A DNA stretch of 64,000 nucleotides from Escherichia phage phiWec181. The notes beneath the pieces were generated by a model. That model was not told where the DNA came from and searched no databases. It saw only the letters and a list, made by a program, of their open reading frames with translations. The DNA lies in sequence record LC739534.1; one strand, 5' to 3'. Position 1 is the stretch's first letter. Each line of letters begins with the position of its first letter. Below are positions 5,170 to 27,200 of the stretch, one piece after another. Position numbers and translations under genes: made by a program.

Positions 5170-6581
5170 ATCATCGCTTTTCCCTATCAATTATTCTATA
5201 TATACCTGTTATTTTTGACACCCCCTTTGGTCAAATATTAATCGGCAAAATATCTGGGGGTACTCTATAAAATGATGCCCCCTGTTCCTGCAATTTATCG
5301 AGGAGAATATCATTCGACTATCATCGGCAAAGAGACAGAAAAGCCTTTGGTAGCAAGGATTTATGGCGAGTACGTCAGGACTGCTTAACGCGAATTTTTC
5401 GGCCCCTCCACTTCTGCGAGCCGGAATCCTCAAATATCAATGAGAATAATTATCATTATCATTCGTATTCAATAACTTAGGCGATCTTTTCCCCTGCTAT
5501 AAGGTCGGGCCTAACTTAACCATCACTTTTCAAACAATCCTTTATCAATCAACTACTTAACAACCTAAACATATGATTACTACGGTGTAAAGGTGCCGCC
5601 CATAACAGACTACCTATAAAATAGATGAGAATGATTATTATTCAGACAATTCTTACAACAAATCGACCAACAAATCAAGAATTTTCTTATTTTTATTCAC
5701 GTTTAAGAGAACGTGCTCAACATTCCGCTACGCGTAACGGTTCGCCCCCAAAAGATTAGCCTTTGCTTTCCTGTATATTTATACACTATGTGCAAGGTGT
5801 CGCTACACGCTCGCCTTGCCCCGCATAATCCTTCACTGTGCTAATGATTTCATAGTGCAACAATAACACTTATTATTATATTACGCTTAATTATTCTTAC
5901 ATACAATGCTAATAATAAGCCAGCGTAATTAGTGTAAGCGTAATACGCTTGCAATAATTGCAAGCTACATAATCACAAGAAATAACTATCACCGATAGTT
6001 ATGATTGTGGGGGTGTAGTTGGCTTATTATTAGCTCGCTACGTGTCCGGCGTAGCGTGCTAATGATGAGGCTTGGAATGATTCATTTTGCAATTATTACA
6101 GTCTTCACTATTTTGATAATAGTTGTTCTTTTAATGGTTTCATTTGTTATCGTTAGTTAGTTGGTTGTTTTGTAGTGTTATCGTTATCTTGCTTAGTATT
6201 CATCACGGTTTGATTGTTTGTCGTTATCAATCATCTTTCTATTATTCCTTTGATTATGATTAGTTTGCTTATTGTTTTAGGTTGTTGGTTGGTTAGTTGT
6301 TGCGAACTATTATCAACATTATAGTTATGCACTTATATTGCATAGATACGCAAGGGTAGATGATAATGGTTATCATTGCACTGGAAAGGAAGAAAACAGC
6401 CTTTTTCGGTTGTTTGTTGTTGGTTGTTGATCTATTTTAACCGCTCTAAATAGCTCTCTAACAGCCTGTTTACCTGGGGTGTATGGTTATTCGTTTGCTG
6501 GTTGATTAGCTCGATACCGCGATTTATTCAGTTTTGTTCTGTGTCGGTTTTTCATAGGCGGAATCTATCAACATTGTTCGG
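5170..6581. other. 1.4 kb non-coding region rich in palindromes and G/T-skewed short repeats
   Basis: No credible ORF; perfect inverted repeats (ATAACTATCACCGATAGTTAT, TTGCAATAATTGCAA, AGCGTAAT/ATTACGCT) and GTTATCGTTA-type repeats on one strand. Confidence 0.6.
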
Positions 6582-6621
6582 GCAAAAAGAAAGGGCGCTT
6601 GGTGCGCCCCTTGTTTTGTTG
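6582..6621 (-). terminator. intrinsic terminator (GGGCGC-N5-GCGCCC hairpin with U-run)
   Basis: GC hairpin 6593-6609 followed on minus strand by TTTCTTTTT; lies just 3' of gene 6626-7045. Confidence 0.6.
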
Positions 6622-6625
6622 TCGA

Positions 6626-7087: not shown

Positions 7088-7122
7088 TTAAATATAATAT
7101 AACGCCGATCCCCTGTCAATAG
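7088..7122 (-). promoter_or_regulatory. sigma70-like promoter (TTGACA, ~18 nt spacer, TATATT) inside CCCCTATTGACAGGGG palindrome
   Basis: Hexamers read on minus strand upstream of gene 6626-7045. Confidence 0.45.
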
Positions 7123-7154
7123 GGGATAGCGTATTATTTACATTTCTTTACGTT

Positions 7155-18399: not shown

Positions 18400-18659
18400 T
18401 ATACACCCCTTTTAACAATCATTTCACACACAAGAAATAAGCTGGCGGAATCACGGCAAGGATAGAAAGATGTACGATAATCTCTCACCCCTGCTTTTAT
18501 GATCTCCGTGGTTTTACCTGATAGCACATTGTAAATAGTGTAACTTGTCGGACTGTTTTTATATACCTTGCCAGGGTAGATCATAACATAACGAGCAAGG
18601 TTATAAAATTCCTCGTTACGAAAGGCTATGATCTTCCCGCATACCTTAAGAAAGTGCAC
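18399..18659 (-). CDS. hypothetical protein (86 aa)
   Basis: GTG start at 18659 with AAGGGGG RBS. Confidence 0.45.
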   Translation of the reverse strand: MHFLKVCGKIIAFRNEEFYNLARYVMIYPGKVYKNSPTSYTIYNVLSGKTTEIIKAGVRDYRTSFYPCRDSASLFLVCEMIVKRGV

Positions 18660-18669
18660 GTTAGCCCCC

Positions 18670-18942
18670 TTACAGCAAAAAGTTTACTTGTCTTGCTGTT
18701 AATGTAGTATCAACCATTTTCGGGCTTTTATAATTGACAAAACGCGCGGTTTTTTCAATAGCGAAGCCGAGATAATCTTGTTTGTTGAAATTACATTCTT
18801 TCTTAAATGTTTCCCGTGCAATGGCGATCGCTGCGTCCAGGGATAAACGCCCGTCAATATTGATATTTGCGAAAGATCCGCCACCGCTCATAGGTTTACC
18901 AGTGGTGCCCGTTACGATCATTGTTGCGCTATATGATGCCAT
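18670..18942 (-). CDS. hypothetical protein (90 aa)
   Basis: ATG at 18942 directly downstream of cassette. Confidence 0.5.
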   Translation of the reverse strand: MASYSATMIVTGTTGKPMSGGGSFANINIDGRLSLDAAIAIARETFKKECNFNKQDYLGFAIEKTARFVNYKSPKMVDTTLTARQVNFLL

Positions 18943-19032
18943 GATGATAATCTCTCTTAGTTGTGAGCGGTGGACCATTCCGCCGCTCTACGTGATACAT
19001 CTTATCAGGTTGTTGCCTGTTGTCAATACTTT
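18943..19032 (-). promoter_or_regulatory. promoter + 5'-UTR hairpin cassette (GCGGTGGACCATTCCGCCGC)
   Basis: TTGACA -35 and hairpin. Confidence 0.5.
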
Positions 19033-19230
19033 TTATTCAAGCCCTACGATATGTAAGACACGGCGATTAGCAATAGCGTGCTGGTCTTCTGTTATAACGC
19101 CCATTTCTACCAGTGAATCAAGAAAGGAAAGCACCGTGATATATTCGTCATCGGGTACACTCATTTCATTAGTACCGTTTACCACTACGTTGATTTGTCC
19201 TGCTTTCGCTACAATGTGCAATGTTGCCAT
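19033..19230 (-). CDS. hypothetical protein (65 aa)
   Basis: ATG at 19230 with GGAG RBS. Confidence 0.5.
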   Translation of the reverse strand: MATLHIVAKAGQINVVVNGTNEMSVPDDEYITVLSFLDSLVEMGVITEDQHAIANRRVLHIVGLE

Positions 19231-19504
19231 GATCTTAACTCCAGGTGATGAATGATGTTTTTTGTTGGTTGACGGTGGATTATGGAGATCCTCACCTTTG
19301 CCCGTCCTGCATTGCGCCCTCCTGTTGTTTATTGTCGTTGTGCCTCGCCCCCCTCGACAAGATTAATACTACGCTACCAGGTGCGGAACGTCAACGACTT
19401 TTTCAATCTTTTTTATTTTCTTTTTGCTTGCTATATATAAAGGAAAGGGCTATCATCTTTCTACCGCGCCAACCAGGGCGCACAACAGAAGAAAGGGCGA
19501 CACC

Positions 19505-19771
19505 ATGACAACTACTACATTACACCTTATGCACTCGTTAGGCTGGCAAGGCGGCACGGTCCACCAGGTAGCAAGCGCAACGGGCTTAAAGGTTGAAACA
19601 GTTCTCAACCTGGGCGATCATAAAGTGGAAGAGATAGACCATTTTGATCCGTTCGCTGATGGTTATCTCTGGGCTTGCAGTGGCGGCGGGGAAAGCAAGA
19701 TACCGCCAGCCGCGCGGGGCGATATGCATTTTTGGTTAGGTGTTCTCTCCTGGCAAGAAAACAAAAAATAA
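19505..19771 (+). CDS. hypothetical protein (88 aa) in GC-rich island
   Basis: Only plus-strand ORF here with ATG start; weak RBS. Confidence 0.35.
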   Translation: MTTTTLHLMHSLGWQGGTVHQVASATGLKVETVLNLGDHKVEEIDHFDPFADGYLWACSGGGESKIPPAARGDMHFWLGVLSWQENKK

Positions 19772-19774
19772 TCT

Positions 19775-19802
19775 TGACAAGCCCAGGGATCGGGCTTATA
19801 CT
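19775..19802 (+). promoter_or_regulatory. near-consensus sigma70 promoter (TTGACA, 16 nt, TATACT) with no downstream ORF
   Basis: Hexamers read directly; no plus-strand ORF over 30 aa for the next 6 kb. Confidence 0.55.
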
Positions 19803-20029
19803 GTTTTACATACAGAAGAGGAAGCGCCACCCCACGGCGTAAAGGCGGGGCTAACATACCAGGGGCACTGGTTGGAAGGTCGATCGCCGGGAGGCTGGGC
19901 GCTATATATTTGTAAAGAAATGTAAAGATAAAATAATCGCTTGCTTTCCTGGCTGGATCTGTTATTCTTATTACATGGCGAGGGGACACGGGAGCGCGAG
20001 ACAATCACCGGACCTGCCCGTCATTCTGC

Positions 20030-20150
20030 AAATGAGAAAAATTCTCATTTGCAAATAAGACTCATTCGCATTTAATAATTGAATGAGAATCATTCTCATT
20101 CTCATTCGTATTTCGATTTTAAGTGAGAATAATTCTCATTTCGGTAATTT
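20030..20150. repeat. three palindromic TGAGAAT-N-ATTCTCA sites (operator-like)
   Basis: TGAGAAAAATTCTCA, ATGAGAATCATTCTCAT, GTGAGAATAATTCTCAT read directly. Confidence 0.6.
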
Positions 20151-20151
20151 T

Positions 20152-20354
20152 CACGTAAACTTTAGAATTTGCTTTTCAACTTTCACTTTTGTAAAAGCAA
20201 AAAAACTTTAAATACCTGGTGCGCGCGACTTTTTAAAAAATTTTTCTCGGTTTTTTGCTTTGAAATCTGGCCCACCAATTTGAGATAGTGTACGTAAACT
20301 TTAGAATTTGGTTTTGGATTCTCACTTTTGTAAACTCGTAAAAAGTTTAAATAA
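20152..20354. repeat. two ~60 bp direct repeats (ACGTAAACTTTAGAATTTG...TTTGTAAA...TTTAAATA), iteron-like
   Basis: Copies at ~20152-20214 and ~20291-20354, ~85% identical, AT-rich; TTGAGATA repeated three times nearby. Confidence 0.6.
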
Positions 20355-20481
20355 TTGTAGGGATTTTGAGATAGTTTGCTTGTAAGGTTTGAGATAATCC
20401 TTCCCGAAGATGTTACGCAGCCTACAGCCTACCTGAATGCTCGTCTAACGAGATTAACTCTAAAAGATGAGTGTTGGTGTA

Positions 20482-20522
20482 GCTAAAGAGAAAAGGCTCT
20501 CTACGGTGTTGTAGGAGCCTTA
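20482..20522 (-). terminator. intrinsic terminator of minus-strand operon
   Basis: Hairpin AAGGCTC...GAGCCTT followed on minus strand by TTCTCTTT, 3' of gene 20592-21119. Confidence 0.5.
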
Positions 20523-20591
20523 TTTCTGTGGCACAAAGTTGACGTATTCTTTTTAAAAACGAATTTTTTCAAAATATCACGAATATCGCCT

Positions 20592-21119
20592 TTATGGTAT
20601 TTTGGCTGGGAACAGGATTTTAATCAGATTGTTGTGGTATTGTCCTAAAAGATTCTGCCCTTTCCAGTTGGCAGGATTAAGCACCCCTGGTTCGTACATA
20701 CCCATTCCAATTCCGTAAACCTTATCATAAGGACTCGCCTCAACGAACGTTTTGAATTGGTACAGTCGCAAGTCAGAATAAAGATCAGGGTTCTGTGTAT
20801 ACTTCAAGCATAAGCCTCGCATTACGATACGCTCTCGGTACTCTTCCCACATGTCATTATTAAAACCAGACACCGCTCGACCCATGCGCTTGTAGTATGC
20901 CTGTCCCTTCTCGTCGTCACGCTTCATTGAGTGATCAAGGATAGCTGCTGCGATTACCTGATCCTTGAACAGCAAAGCCTTACGCCACATCATGTATTGC
21001 TCTACACAACAGAAAGTTTCATTGTACCCTGGTTCCGTCTCTGTGAATGGTGCAATGTACCAATTGCTAAACACATCTTTATGTGAAAAGAAGAATACAT
21101 ATTCATTAGTTATTCGCAT
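20592..21119 (-). CDS. NADAR/YbiA-like domain protein (175 aa)
   Basis: Translation shows FFxxxxxFSNW, CxEQxMMxxKA and VEASPxDxVYGIG with NLLG, matching the YbiA/NADAR pattern as I recall it. Confidence 0.6.
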   Translation of the reverse strand: MRITNEYVFFFSHKDVFSNWYIAPFTETEPGYNETFCCVEQYMMWRKALLFKDQVIAAAILDHSMKRDDEKGQAYYKRMGRAVSGFNNDMWEEYRERIVMRGLCLKYTQNPDLYSDLRLYQFKTFVEASPYDKVYGIGMGMYEPGVLNPANWKGQNLLGQYHNNLIKILFPAKIP

Positions 21120-21330
21120 TTTTCATGCCTCTTAAGACTTCAGCTTGCCCGTCTTGAAAAGCTTTCATCAGAACTATCTTAAGATTGACTTCCAAGCGTT
21201 CTTCATCCTCTTTATAACAATCCAACACTGCCTTAAGTTCATCATAGTGGTTCAGAATAGGTTTAAAGATTTCATGATCTGCTAAACGTGCCATAGTTTC
21301 TCCTTTGTTAGTCCATCCACCAGTAGCCAT
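21106..21330 (-). CDS. hypothetical protein (74 aa)
   Basis: ORF overlapping neighbours, operon context. Confidence 0.5.
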   Translation of the reverse strand: MATGGWTNKGETMARLADHEIFKPILNHYDELKAVLDCYKEDEERLEVNLKIVLMKAFQDGQAEVLRGMKNANN

Positions 21331-21673
21331 AAACTGCGTCTGCGTCGATGAGTTTGTGTTTGTTGTTCCGCATGTAGTCTAAGATAAGTAGACGTTTATT
21401 GTATCTGGAGAGATTATGACCCTCTTTTCCGCCATAGTCAAAATATTTTGCAAGACTTTTACACTCAAACAAAATCAGTTCGGGAGTTTCTTCACATTGG
21501 TCTGTCTGGTACACTTGACGGATGATCATGTATACGTCATCGTCTTCCGCTAAGTGCTCTACTGGTCCACACCCAGCAGGAATAAATTCATAGTCCCATC
21601 GAATCAGATGTTTCTCTACTGCTTCAAAGAAATCCATTTTTTCGCTACGCATGATCTGAACATCAATTAACAT
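21308..21673 (-). CDS. hypothetical protein (121 aa)
   Basis: ORF, operon context. Confidence 0.55.
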   Translation of the reverse strand: MLIDVQIMRSEKMDFFEAVEKHLIRWDYEFIPAGCGPVEHLAEDDDVYMIIRQVYQTDQCEETPELILFECKSLAKYFDYGGKEGHNLSRYNKRLLILDYMRNNKHKLIDADAVYGYWWMD

Positions 21674-22679
21674 AATTTTCCTCCTGTCTCATTATTCCAC
21701 CTGCTTGGTTGATAGCACTTAAGACAACAGCCAAATCCTCACGCAGGAAGGTTTCACTATGACCGTCTTTCATGTGCAACGCTTCCACACAGCCGATAGA
21801 CGGTAGGATCTGATCAGTCTTAGATTTTAGCTTACTCTCTAACGCCCTGCAAGCCTGGTAGGACGGCAGATCAAACAATGCTACACGTTGCATAAAGTAG
21901 TTATTATTTGCATTCTGAATCTTCAAACGTATATCACTATCCTTTGCAATCCCCAGCTTGAAAGCTCCCGTATCTTCTCCATACTCATCAAGGATAACGT
22001 TGATGTAAAATTCTTGCTGTGATCTGCCTTTACATTCAGAACAACCATTCCCACTTAGATACTTATTAGGTGTTATCGTTTGTTCTCCGTGCTCACTACA
22101 TAAATATTTAAACTTAGACATGGTTCCCACCTTACCAACGAACCCTATAAACTGGTCCCCTCGTTCCTGGCAAGCTTCAGTCATACGGAAAATCCATTGC
22201 GCAGGAGTGTAACGATGGTTTTTAGAACAACGGCAAGCAAGCAGCCCATCTCTAAGACTGCTCCTCGTTACTTCAAACCTACCGTTACACACGCCAGCCT
22301 TTACATATTCGTCATGAGAACATACGGAACACTTAACTATCCAATAAGCCGCCCATCCTTTACTATCTAATCTATCACTACGATAATACTCACGCGGAAC
22401 GTTATCAGGACACGCTTTGTTAAAGGTTGTGATATGGATTGAATCATCAATTAAACATGTTTGCCTTATTGCTTCCACCCTACAACCTTTACAACCACTT
22501 CCTATTTTAGCATTATCTATAGAAGTTGTTCTCCATTCCCCATGTATAGAACATTCACAGGTTAGTTTAGTGCGTGCCCCCTTCCATTCACCATGCCACC
22601 CCGTAATGGTCCACGGTTTATCCTGGTAAGCTTGTTCTATTTCTTCCTGATATTCCTCCCAACTTTTAGCCCTCATCAT
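21663..22679 (-). CDS. zinc-ribbon repeat protein with C-terminal T5orf172/GIY-YIG-like domain (338 aa)
   Basis: Multiple CxxC/CxC pairs; C-terminal FKLGIAKDSDIRLKIQ...KDGHSETF shared with paralog 26247-27200. Confidence 0.55.
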   Translation of the reverse strand: MMRAKSWEEYQEEIEQAYQDKPWTITGWHGEWKGARTKLTCECSIHGEWRTTSIDNAKIGSGCKGCRVEAIRQTCLIDDSIHITTFNKACPDNVPREYYRSDRLDSKGWAAYWIVKCSVCSHDEYVKAGVCNGRFEVTRSSLRDGLLACRCSKNHRYTPAQWIFRMTEACQERGDQFIGFVGKVGTMSKFKYLCSEHGEQTITPNKYLSGNGCSECKGRSQQEFYINVILDEYGEDTGAFKLGIAKDSDIRLKIQNANNNYFMQRVALFDLPSYQACRALESKLKSKTDQILPSIGCVEALHMKDGHSETFLREDLAVVLSAINQAGGIMRQEENYVN

Positions 22680-22716: not shown

Positions 22717-23856
22717 TTAGAACACGCTACTTAAGGTTGCAGATCGTGTAGTGGTTGGTTCCAGAACCACACGGAACGTATCCCCAGGTTTATCGCTCAC
22801 TACTACAATCTTACCACCTTCGATCAGGTCACACTTCAAACCTTCGGCAGTAGCTTTCAGGTCGATGCGTGGATCGCCATCATCATCCAGGATAACGTAG
22901 CTGCTATCTTCGAGAGGCTCCAGTTCTTCGTCTTTCACGGCTTCCAGGTAGATGTTCAGTTCACATGCACCAGACAAGAACTTGGTAGGAGTGAACTCAT
23001 GCCAGTTGTTGACCCAGTTAGGCTTGATAGCTTTACCGTTGACAACAATAGAGCTAATCGTCCAGCGTGCATCGTTACCCAGAGAGATACCCATCATCTC
23101 CAGACAGGTCTTGAACGTCATTTTCGGATAGAAGTTTAACTCTTCTACGATCCCTTGAATAACATCGAAAGACAGTTCAGTGCTAACATCCCACAAACGT
23201 TGGAAGCTTTCAACATGTTTGCGATTCTTCAGATTCTTGTCCAGGTAGTCCAGCATAGTTTCAATAGACAGTTTGTCGTAGTTGAAGCTATAGAAGATAC
23301 GGCTCGGACGGTTGACGAAGTATTCCGAGATGTATCCGCTGTTCTTTGTCAGCATGAACAGTTTGTTACCGCTACCTGTGCCATCCAGCAGAGTCAGCAG
23401 TGCTTCCTGATCTTCCTTCTTGGAATACACTTTGTCGAACTCATCGAACAGTACTACTGCGCGTTCAGAGATCTTACTCATGAACTCCAGGAAATTGGCA
23501 TCAGAATATGGCTGCGTTACCAGAATAGTTGGGATTCCCAGGTCTTCCGCTTCCAACAGAGTGTTACTGATCAGTTTTGCCAGCATTGTCTTGCCACTGC
23601 CTTTTGTACCCGACAACAGGACACCTGTGTTCTTACCTTCTTTACTACGACGAGCGAAGGTACGGATAACGTGGGCTGCACGTTCTTTGGTTTCCCCGTA
23701 CAGGCGATCAGGAATCGTGAACTTATCAGCGCGACTAAGAGAATAGTTACCATGTGGATCACAATTGACAGTCCAAACGCCAGCGGGGAGTTTATCAACC
23801 TCTACACCAAAATCTTTATTAACAATTGCAACATCCCCATAAACTGTGTATTTCAT
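22717..23856 (-). CDS. AAA+ family ATPase (379 aa)
   Basis: Walker A GTKGSGKT and Walker B VVLFDEFD in translation; RBS AGAAGAGGAGAAAG. Confidence 0.7.
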   Translation of the reverse strand: MKYTVYGDVAIVNKDFGVEVDKLPAGVWTVNCDPHGNYSLSRADKFTIPDRLYGETKERAAHVIRTFARRSKEGKNTGVLLSGTKGSGKTMLAKLISNTLLEAEDLGIPTILVTQPYSDANFLEFMSKISERAVVLFDEFDKVYSKKEDQEALLTLLDGTGSGNKLFMLTKNSGYISEYFVNRPSRIFYSFNYDKLSIETMLDYLDKNLKNRKHVESFQRLWDVSTELSFDVIQGIVEELNFYPKMTFKTCLEMMGISLGNDARWTISSIVVNGKAIKPNWVNNWHEFTPTKFLSGACELNIYLEAVKDEELEPLEDSSYVILDDDGDPRIDLKATAEGLKCDLIEGGKIVVVSDKPGDTFRVVLEPTTTRSATLSSVF

Positions 23857-25828: not shown

Positions 25829-26112
25829 TTTGTTTCTCCCCGCTCTGCGTCTAATTTCAATAAGAAGGCTGCATACTCTTCCGAACCTTTGTGTAAGAAC
25901 ATACGATAAGAACTCACCAGTTTCTTCGTTGTTGTATAACGCTCCATTCCGCCGACAACCCCTGTACCGAGAGTGTAGAGAACAACACCTTCAACCCCAA
26001 CATGGGTTACGACTTCAACCATGTCCGTGTTATCCCAGTGATATTTAGGGGATACAATAAGATCGCCAACTGCTAATTTGATGTTTGCCGCTTCGTCTTG
26101 TGAATAGTACAT
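25825..26112 (-). CDS. hypothetical protein (95 aa), first gene of minus operon
   Basis: ATG at 26112 with GAGAGGAGAAC RBS; promoter upstream. Confidence 0.55.
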   Translation of the reverse strand: MYYSQDEAANIKLAVGDLIVSPKYHWDNTDMVEVVTHVGVEGVVLYTLGTGVVGGMERYTTTKKLVSSYRMFLHKGSEEYAAFLLKLDAERGETK

Positions 26113-26246: not shown

Positions 26247-27200
26247 ATGAAATACGAAGATTTTAAACAAATAGTTAAAGACGATGTGGTATTTGAGAAC
26301 TTACAGGAAGGTTGTGAAGTCTTAGGTTGGACAGAAAGAGATAGAAACTTTGCAAAAATATACGTAATACGTTGTAGTGTTTGTGCCAAAGACCCCGAAA
26401 TGTATGGAGATGGTCTTTTTACAGCTACAAAAGGGCGTTTAGTGAAAGGTCAGAAATGTTGCGCGTGCGCTGTATCCTTTAAATACAGTCAAAACCAACA
26501 CCTAATTCTGCTAAACAGGCATTTAAGTGTCGCAGGGTACAGCATAGTTTCTATTGGTGCTTGGGAGTGTTCTAAGACGAGAATAGAGTTTAGTTGTGAG
26601 AATGGACACACGAAGAACAGAACCCTGGCTCAAGCAAAGGTAGTAGAACCTTGTAAACAGTGTCTTGAAGAAGGCTGTACAAAACACAAACAAGATGAGG
26701 CAGAGGCAAAAATTATGAAGATAATAGAAGATAAATGTTTACCTTATGTATTTGTAGGGTGGGATACTTCTTACAAGAATGTAACTTCAAAATTCAACCT
26801 CATCTGTTCGGATCACGGTTTAAAAACAATAAGATACGCTTGTTTCCTAAATGGTCATTTTTGTAACGAGTGTTCTGGTAGAAATTGCCTAAGTCTTTAT
26901 TTATTAGGAGTTTATGATAGAGACTTGTTGGTAGGTTTAAAATTTGGCATCTCTCAGAGTCCAGTAAGAAGGGTTCAACAGTTAAATAAAAGGAACTTAT
27001 TTAAATGTAAAATACTACAGATTTGGACTTTTACATCACATGATCAAGCTGTACGGATGGAAACATTATTAAAGAACACATTGCGAACTGGAATATTTAC
27101 TAAAAGAGAGATGAAAGATGGTCATACAGAAACCACAGAAGTTACTAATTTAGAAACCATAATGGACCTTATGACCTCATCTCATGGATTGGTTAGTTAA
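26247..27200 (+). CDS. zinc-ribbon repeat protein with C-terminal T5orf172/GIY-YIG-like domain (317 aa)
   Basis: RBS AAGGAGGAAAC; Cys pairs; LKFGISQSPVRRVQQL...KDGHTETT, paralog of 21663-22679. Confidence 0.6.
   Translation: MKYEDFKQIVKDDVVFENLQEGCEVLGWTERDRNFAKIYVIRCSVCAKDPEMYGDGLFTATKGRLVKGQKCCACAVSFKYSQNQHLILLNRHLSVAGYSIVSIGAWECSKTRIEFSCENGHTKNRTLAQAKVVEPCKQCLEEGCTKHKQDEAEAKIMKIIEDKCLPYVFVGWDTSYKNVTSKFNLICSDHGLKTIRYACFLNGHFCNECSGRNCLSLYLLGVYDRDLLVGLKFGISQSPVRRVQQLNKRNLFKCKILQIWTFTSHDQAVRMETLLKNTLRTGIFTKREMKDGHTETTEVTNLETIMDLMTSSHGLVS

Follow-up and report, generated by a model that had tools for sequence, protein, structure and literature searches.

What is the role of a phage region that carries strong promoters and conserved repeats and no credible gene? 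We addressed this question for positions 19774-20591 of a window of 64,000 nucleotides (the whole stretch of DNA analyzed) from Escherichia phage phiWec181 (sequence record LC739534.1), which was assigned to Phapecoctavirus (Stephanstirmvirinae). The locus is free of open reading frames (ORFs) and is predicted to be transcribed from the plus strand. A preliminary description, made from the sequence alone, had regarded it as a candidate replication origin or control hub. We give a probability of about one half to the reading that rV5-like and phi92-like phages conserve here an early non-coding control locus, in which the host regulator Fur would gate transcription into a set of direct repeats. 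The locus contains the following elements:

19774-19802, plus strand: predicted promoter P1, TTGACA (19774-19779), a 17-nt spacer and TATACT (19797-19802), score 11/12, hexamers conserved.
19809-19915, plus strand: RNA1, a GC-rich segment of ~105 nt and candidate structured non-coding RNA, from conservation, pairing and fold score.
19912-19926, plus strand: GTAAAGAAATGTAAA, a GTAAA-N5-GTAAA direct repeat (putative CpxR-type site) upstream of the -35 of P2, conserved in most relatives.
19941-19968, plus strand: predicted promoter P2, TTGCTT-16-TATTCT, with the TTG of the -35 and the TA...T of the -10 invariant across subfamilies.
19975-20030, plus strand: RNA2, a predicted leader of ~55 nt with the invariant GAGACAATCACC at 19998-20009, from conservation.
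20031-20140, no strand: array of Fur-box-like operators at 20031-20049, 20054-20072 (weak), 20082-20100, 20088-20106 (overlapping the previous one) and 20122-20140.
20153-20214, plus strand: direct repeat copy 1, 62 nt, conserved within the genus.
20219-20247, no strand: GGTGCGCGCGAC followed by the A/T palindrome TTTTTAAAAAATTTTT, between the repeats, conserved in the genus.
20279-20396, plus strand: motif TTTGAGATA in three copies, at 20279, 20365 and 20388, the only ones in 64 kb against 1.17 expected.
20292-20353, plus strand: direct repeat copy 2, 62 nt, 84% identical to copy 1, conserved within the genus.
20495-20529, both strands: predicted bidirectional intrinsic terminator GGCTC(T)CTAC / GTAGGAGCC, an inverted repeat with T-runs on both strands.

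The evidence that carries this reading lies in the palindromes. TGAGAAAAATTCTCA was found at 20033-20047, TGAGAATCATTCTCA at 20084-20098 and TGAGAATAATTCTCA at 20124-20138, together with the degenerate fourth palindrome at 20054-20072. The palindrome pattern has five matches with at most two mismatches in the window, compared to 0.46 expected. The array sites match 14-17 of the 19 positions of the Fur consensus sequence GATAATGATAATCATTATC and have matrix scores of 15-33 bits. The half-sites of related phages vary between TGAGAAT and TGATAAT, and some of these phages carry the perfect 7-1-7 Fur consensus TGATAATnATTATCA. Neighboring boxes of the relatives are spaced by exactly 29 bp in 27 of 45 pairs. 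A phage matrix was built from 56 distinct phage sites and used to scan E. coli K-12. Between 595 and 644 kb its six best matches were all located in the Fur-controlled intergenic regions fepB-entC, fepD-entS and fepA-fes. Between 3536 and 3585 kb the highest score, 27.6 bits, was that of the Fur box over the promoter of ryhB, and the matches ranking third and fourth were located upstream of feoA. In the reverse scan, with a matrix built from just six of these E. coli sites, the top 12 matches in the window were all found within 20031-20140 and 5439-6377. By sequence the palindromes are Fur boxes, from which we infer that Fur binds them. Literature searches on Fur boxes, origins and non-coding RNAs returned no paper linking Fur to these phages. 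The GAGAAT sites are thus sites of a host regulator by the reciprocal matrix scans, and not phage iterons.

The inventory of the DNA in the preliminary description was largely borne out. The ~800 bp said to lack a credible ORF do so, 19858-20591 being one of just two gaps of at least 350 nt in the 64 kb without an ATG-initiated ORF of at least 50 amino acids (aa). The near-consensus TTGACA/TATACT promoter is present with a spacer of 17 nt instead of the 16 nt given, and it is followed by the GC-rich segment (60% GC at 19800-19899). The three TGAGAAT-N-ATTCTCA sites were recovered and joined by the degenerate fourth. The two direct repeats of ~60 bp, reported as ~140 bp apart, are 139 nt apart, and the triplicated motif has no further copy in the window. 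P2, the GTAAA-N5-GTAAA repeat, the terminator and a conservation reaching far beyond the genus had been overlooked.

Conservation was assessed by a sensitive blastn search with the locus, which matched 403 phage records. Additional loci were fetched from IMG/VR and metagenomes by means of an invariant 20-mer, and about 40 distinct loci were aligned. Five bacterial or other matches to the exact 20-mer in genome and metagenome collections were discarded as chance, their likeness being limited to the 20-mer itself. Within blastn alignments 19805-20060 is 88% identical in Justusliebigvirus and 70-75% identical in Certrevirus (phiTE, CR3), Mydovirus (KB57), Seunavirus (4MG) and other Vequintavirinae. 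Vequintavirus proper retains 19931-20090 and T5-like phages match 20030-20115, while the AT-rich repeat part is alignable within the genus only (~78% identity). In the matching phages the region is a gap of 0.8-1 kb without credible genes; the paper on the rV5 genome drew it as a "non-coding" box and assigned no function to it (PMC3606486).

The order of modules in the alignment is P1, RNA1, TTTGTAAAGAAnTGTAAAGA, P2, RNA2, the palindromes, lineage-specific direct repeats and the terminator. Phage rV5 lacks RNA1 and has instead two units in tandem, each with a promoter, an RNA2-type leader and, after the leader, the palindromes (Fur boxes). Because rV5 keeps two such units and no RNA1, this unit is the most widely kept module. 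In one Mydovirus-like contig from IMG/VR (L026), P1 and RNA1 are intact and an insert of ~740 bp, which starts with a ribosome-binding site and an ORF, precedes the part with the Fur boxes. This arrangement is seen roughly 90-1000 nt past the RNA1 motif, and RNA1 is therefore separable in nature from the remaining locus.

Comparative evidence supports P1 as a real promoter, one of two in tandem. It is the only perfect match to TTGACA-N17-TATAMT in the window, which has 13 matches when up to one mismatch is allowed (0.98 expected). P1 is also the best sigma-70 match of the window and the only plus-strand member of this early-promoter family in the first 26 kb. The spacer contains a hairpin (19779-19797) that also resembles a terminator of the upstream gene. 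Among relatives the hexamers are conserved, and the spacer is variable yet always contains a hairpin.

RNA1 was found nearly invariant across Stephanstirmvirinae and most Vequintavirinae, with 53 of 118 alignment columns invariant in 29 distinct sequences from two subfamilies. A three-helix model pairs 93.8% of the cells, and sliding the partners lowers this value to 18-39%. At pair 57-79, 15 sequences have AU, 14 have GC and none is unpaired. The window sequence folds better than shuffled sequences (z = -2.76), and in Serratia phage ChuuTotoro the bulged hairpin of RNA1 is retained with a different sequence. Since most columns never vary, pairing and covariation give modest support and not proof; RNA1 is probably a structured RNA. 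No match was obtained when 18500-21500 was scanned with the covariance models of Rfam 15 at E-values up to 1, no tRNA or tmRNA was detected in the window, and neither RNA1 nor RNA2 matched any of 5,426 E. coli genomes by blastn.

P2 is located 165 bp downstream of P1. Its spacer varies freely among relatives, and its module is also retained in Vequintavirus. RNA2 contains the motif GAGACAAWCACC, invariant in the alignment of relatives. A seed-target search for sequences complementary to the invariant 12-mer of RNA2 gave nothing convincing in the window. The GTAAA-N5-GTAAA repeat ahead of P2 has the form that we take to be the CpxR consensus. It has two matches in the window compared to 0.26 expected, and in 138 kb of E. 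coli K-12 it was found just once, between cpxR and cpxP. On this limited test, the assignment of 19912-19926 as a predicted CpxR-type site upstream of the -35 of P2 is a lead. A second exact copy of the repeat, at 7137-7151 on the minus strand, is located 17 nt upstream of a TTGACA-17-TATATT promoter (feature 7091-7151) whose -35 lies inside a stem-loop, directly after a terminator hairpin. The two sites suggest that the phage may have a small set of CpxR-type early promoters.

Downstream of the array the DNA becomes AT-rich, and 20070-20369 has the lowest GC content of any 300 bp in the window (29.0%). A promoter-like TTGAGA-16-TAGAAT (20280-20307) runs into repeat copy 2. Two to three direct repeats of 62-75 bp follow the Fur array in every lineage (3 x 63 nt in phi92, 3 x 63 nt in KB57, three copies in CR3, two in rV5 and two in the window). 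The sequence of the repeats differs between subfamilies: units from Vequintavirinae have a TCGATCGAGA core, GATC clusters and phased A/T tracts, and each unit of KB57 begins with AAAAAATTTTTTCGCG, which is similar to the sequence between the repeats of the window. The motif TTTGAGATA may represent an extended -10 element (TG-n-GATAAT). It is found at the same offset in KB57 (Mydovirus), 4MG and other relatives and is absent from phi92, CR3 and phiTE. The terminator is conserved in the genus and is annotated as such in ASO2A and phAPEC8.

In the annotated records the locus sits among small early genes of the minus strand that form a long block; each of these genes has a sigma-70 promoter and a terminator to itself. 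The sole plus-strand unit of this 26-kb block consists of an 88-aa gene (19505-19771) and the next ~800 bp; it closes at the bidirectional terminator, just short of the minus-strand gene 20592-21119. The segment 19400-20600 is 100% identical to Escherichia phages phiWec179 and phiWec186, and ~84% identical to most other members of Phapecoctavirus.

Altogether, these observations suggest the following order of events. Host RNA polymerase would read the locus against the surrounding minus-strand genes. From P1 it would produce RNA1, the highly conserved and probably structured RNA of ~105 nt, and from P2, with the CpxR-type site ahead of it, a short conserved leader. Both transcripts would run on into the array of three to five Fur operators, where iron-loaded Fur may act as a roadblock and gate read-through from P1 and P2 into the repeat region. 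In some relatives Fur might also gate the firing of a third promoter beside the array. The function of the repeats would in this way be tied to the iron status of the host and, via CpxR, to envelope stress. The most plausible downstream functions would be the firing of a transcription-activated origin or the production of further non-coding RNA, and the unit would be closed by the bidirectional terminator.

Several observations weigh against this scheme. The boxes are located at +55 to +165 of the predicted P2 start and not over the promoter, which is not the classical geometry of repression; in KB57 and 4MG ~14 nt separate the end of the last box from the downstream -35 of a third promoter. 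The structure of RNA1 depends on one strongly covarying pair and one divergent lineage, RNA1 has no intrinsic terminator of its own, and Vequintavirus proper has a second RNA2-type module in its stead. The outer, closing helix of RNA2 is paired in 90%, but shuffled alignments often reach that value and the covariation is not significant. The TTGAGATA motifs are missing in several lineages. Finally, all promoters and operators of the locus are predictions.

Other explanations of the same DNA were considered. That the locus encodes protein, either by the minus-strand ORF 19663-20004 (113 aa, gp009 of phAPEC8) or by small plus-strand ORFs, is extremely improbable. Several records do annotate coding sequences (CDSs) here, and one minus-strand frame through RNA1 is free of stops for 61-123 codons in 12 of 14 relatives, but an open frame is expected from the T-poor plus strand. 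The frame has stops in phi92 and in one relative from IMG/VR, and a 1-nt indel between phiWec179 and ASO2A, of the same genus, alters the frame of the N-terminal half. Variable sites show neither an excess at third positions nor a three-base periodicity. The ORF also overlaps the well-supported plus-strand 88-aa gene as well as P1, RNA1 and P2, and among members of the genus indels interrupt the small plus-strand ORFs of the AT-rich part. Coding potential was rejected on both strands because of the stops, the frame shifts among relatives and the lack of codon periodicity, and the annotation of gp009 is most likely a spurious call. A packaging (pac) site or a site for recognition of genome ends, built from the repeats, is very unlikely. 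The GATC-core repeats of Vequintavirinae recall the pac site of phage P1, and the public records of EC152 and phiWec189 begin inside the locus. However, record starts are arbitrary for most relatives, and among ~400 records chance alone would put about three starts into a locus of 1 kb. The locus is surrounded by early genes and nothing ties it to the terminase. The packaging site that the preliminary description had offered as an alternative found nothing in its support. The Fur boxes could instead act as a decoy: about eight strong boxes per genome in two loci would titrate Fur and derepress iron uptake, RyhB and nrdHIEF to feed nucleotide synthesis of the phage. The window has at least eight strong boxes, confined to two non-coding regions and not positioned over promoters. 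Multicopy Fur boxes derepress Fur-controlled genes, which is the principle of the Fur titration assay reportedly described by Stojiljkovic et al. in 1994. We nevertheless consider a Fur sponge unlikely. T5-like phages, which destroy host DNA within minutes, carry the same boxes, so derepression of the host would be of no help to them. Their boxes are found in the first-injected terminal repeat, one of them directly upstream of a phage gene, and both the fixed place of the boxes after P2 and their 29-bp phasing argue for a role in cis.

Two further explanations give the downstream DNA or the RNA itself the leading part. The locus could be a transcription-primed or transcription-activated origin, a possibility that we entertain tentatively. 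The AT-rich repeat DNA would be invaded or opened by transcripts from P1 and P2, a phage initiator would bind to the 62-75-bp repeats, and the sites for Fur would be accessory sites of a host factor. Tandem promoters are directed into the lowest-GC DNA of the window, which agrees with origins of the T7/T4 oriF type, where a promoter points into an AT-rich unwinding region without coding function. The transcripts are non-coding, and transcription would thus serve the DNA or the RNA itself. Two to three large direct repeats are found per lineage and change in sequence with the lineage as iterons do, and those of Vequintavirinae carry the GATC clusters and phased A/T tracts. The authors of the rV5 paper, who found the non-coding box, could not place the origin by skew (PMC3606486). 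In the window, the cumulative GC skew, which was our only proxy for the start of replication and tracks gene orientation, has its minimum at 26036, where gene orientation switches, and no inflection at 20 kb. An iteron-type origin would be expected to have at least three iterons of 17-22 bp, DnaA or IHF sites and an adjoining initiator gene. However, the repeats in the window are only two, 139 bp apart, and scans of the locus for DnaA, IHF, LexA and CRP consensus sequences gave nothing. No initiator gene could be identified among the neighbors, which encode a NADAR protein, a CapR-domain protein, an AAA ATPase and the unknown 88-aa protein. The strongest conservation is in the RNA segments and the Fur boxes and not in the AT-rich DNA, and the AT-rich non-coding region with Fur boxes at 5.3-6.6 kb is an equally good origin candidate. 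No literature on an origin function of the locus was found. Of the "origin or control hub" proposed earlier, the hub is supported by the tandem promoters and Fur operators. A possible origin fits the layout, but skew and the DnaA and IHF scans lend it no support. The divergent junction at ~26036, where minus-strand genes give way to plus-strand genes, would be another site to consider for an origin. It is also conceivable, if rather doubtful, that the locus produces trans-acting RNA: RNA1, perhaps with RNA2 and an RNA of ~120 nt ending at the terminator, would act on host or phage targets (in takeover, anti-defense, as decoy or as sensor), and the DNA elements would only regulate its synthesis. 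The preliminary description had named a non-coding RNA as an alternative, and this gains support from the extreme conservation of RNA1 and its one covarying hairpin behind a strong predicted early promoter. The conservation exceeds the needs of short protein sites and includes stretches predicted to be unpaired, and the Mydovirus-like contig retains P1 and RNA1 apart from the rest of the locus. A phage non-coding RNA that counters host defense has a precedent in pseudo-ToxI of phiTE (PMC3475682). The locus itself was rejected as such a type III antitoxin mimic, pseudo-ToxI with its tandem ToxI-like repeats of ~36 nt being located at 106.7 kb of phiTE (genes 202-203) and the homologue of the locus at 39.6 kb. 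Against an RNA acting in trans are the missing terminator after RNA1, the absence of RNA1 from Vequintavirus, the lack of a target in the window for the invariant 12-mer and the lack of similarity to host RNA or an Rfam family. It would also leave the conserved repeat architecture downstream unexplained.

The second region of the window with Fur-box-like sites is a large, ORF-free and AT-rich segment at 5271-6625, of which 6076-6375 has the second lowest GC content of the window (29.3%). Strong sites are located at 5439-5463, 5624-5642 and 6359-6377, and 5625-5642 matches the Fur box and -10 region of E. coli ryhB at every position. Only the box unit, 31 nt at 90% identity, is shared between this region and the 20-kb locus. 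The terminal repeat of the T5-like Salmonella phage Stitch has a non-coding end (1265-1560) in which four to five Fur-type boxes are found in a row with a CTGTATAAATATACAG site (LexA-type, CTGT-N8-ACAG) and DnaA-type boxes. A further box in Stitch, at 886-910, is identical to the ryhB Fur box and located just upstream of pre-early gene 14. Davison's survey of Repeat Region 3 of T5 lists palindromes and DnaA boxes and does not mention Fur (bioRxiv 10.1101/866236).

The genes flanking the locus or found near it are:

19505-19771, plus strand: gene for an 88-aa protein of unknown function, annotated as CDS in phiWec179.
20592-21119, minus strand: gene for a protein with a NADAR domain match (PF08719, E = 1e-33).
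21663-22679 and 26247-27200: genes for two proteins with CapR homology domains (PF21817).
22717-23856: gene for an AAA ATPase, between the two CapR-domain protein genes.

Homologues of the 88-aa protein were found in related phages and metagenomes only. Its AlphaFold2 (AF2) model has five helices and a predicted local distance difference test (pLDDT) score of 94, and a comparison of the model to the PDB gave no informative match. In Mydovirus and Seunavirus an unrelated DUF7170 gene occupies its place. Several related records label the gene at 20592-21119 "GTP cyclohydrolase II", which is probably wrong.

The rV5-like and phi92-like phages are broad-host-range candidates for therapy, and no function has been given to their large conserved non-coding box since it was drawn in the rV5 paper (PMC3606486). 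If Fur binds the array, the development of these phages, and of the T5-like phages sharing the boxes, would depend on the iron status of the host. Such a dependence would be relevant to phage therapy, which is applied in the gut and the bloodstream, both limited in iron. A first functional clue would be provided, too, to the long-unexplained injection-stop palindromes of T5. With considerable reservation, we suggest that Fur operator arrays have been built into the large non-coding regions of virulent enterobacterial phages from two unrelated groups (rV5/phi92-like myoviruses and T5-like siphoviruses), and that in the myoviruses the array follows a conserved structured RNA not described before. 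Iron status might then gate an early non-coding program, possibly including origin firing, or the phage DNA might be a sink for Fur; RNA1 could define a new phage RNA class and perhaps act as a sensor or a pre-primer.

The locus can be compared to several known systems. It shares with the E. coli Fur operators the 19-bp motif (AATGAGAATCATTCTCATT in the phage, AATAATAATCATTCTCATT at ryhB), and its boxes are clustered or overlapping like those of natural operators. In contrast to these, the boxes are found in a virulent phage, downstream of promoters rather than over the -35 and -10, and in an array of three to five boxes, mostly phased by 29 bp, with no gene downstream. A Fur anti-silencing array has reportedly been described upstream of E. 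coli ftnA by Nandal et al. in 2010. Both arrays have several Fur boxes off the core promoter and beside AT-rich, H-NS-prone DNA, but the ftnA array is located upstream and activates a gene, whereas the phage array is located between promoters and AT-rich repeats.

Among origins, the primary origin of T7 (promoters 1.1A and 1.1B and AT-rich DNA) and oriF and oriG of T4 (promoter and unwinding element) are the closest in layout, with two tandem promoters directed into non-coding AT-rich DNA in our case. The promoters here are however predicted host sigma-70 promoters and not phage-specific or middle ones, the RNA itself is highly conserved and probably structured, and Fur and CpxR-type sites and large repeats are added. 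The RNA II pre-primer of ColE1 is likewise a G-rich RNA driven by a sigma-70 promoter toward DNA on which it acts, as the candidate structured RNA of the phage possibly does; the latter differs in belonging to a phage rather than a plasmid, in having no sequence or Rfam similarity to RNA II and in giving no sign of an antisense regulator.

The last comparison is to Repeat Region 3, the injection-stop region of T5-like phages. This region is part of a terminal repeat, has paired DnaA boxes and CTGT-N8-ACAG (LexA-type), and is without RNA1, RNA2 or tandem promoters. Like the phiWec181 locus it is a large, conserved and ORF-free region rich in direct repeats and palindromes, and the box units of the two are near-identical (gaatgagaatcattctcattctcattcgtatttcg in the window, aatgagaatcaatctcattctcattcgcatttcgg in Stitch).

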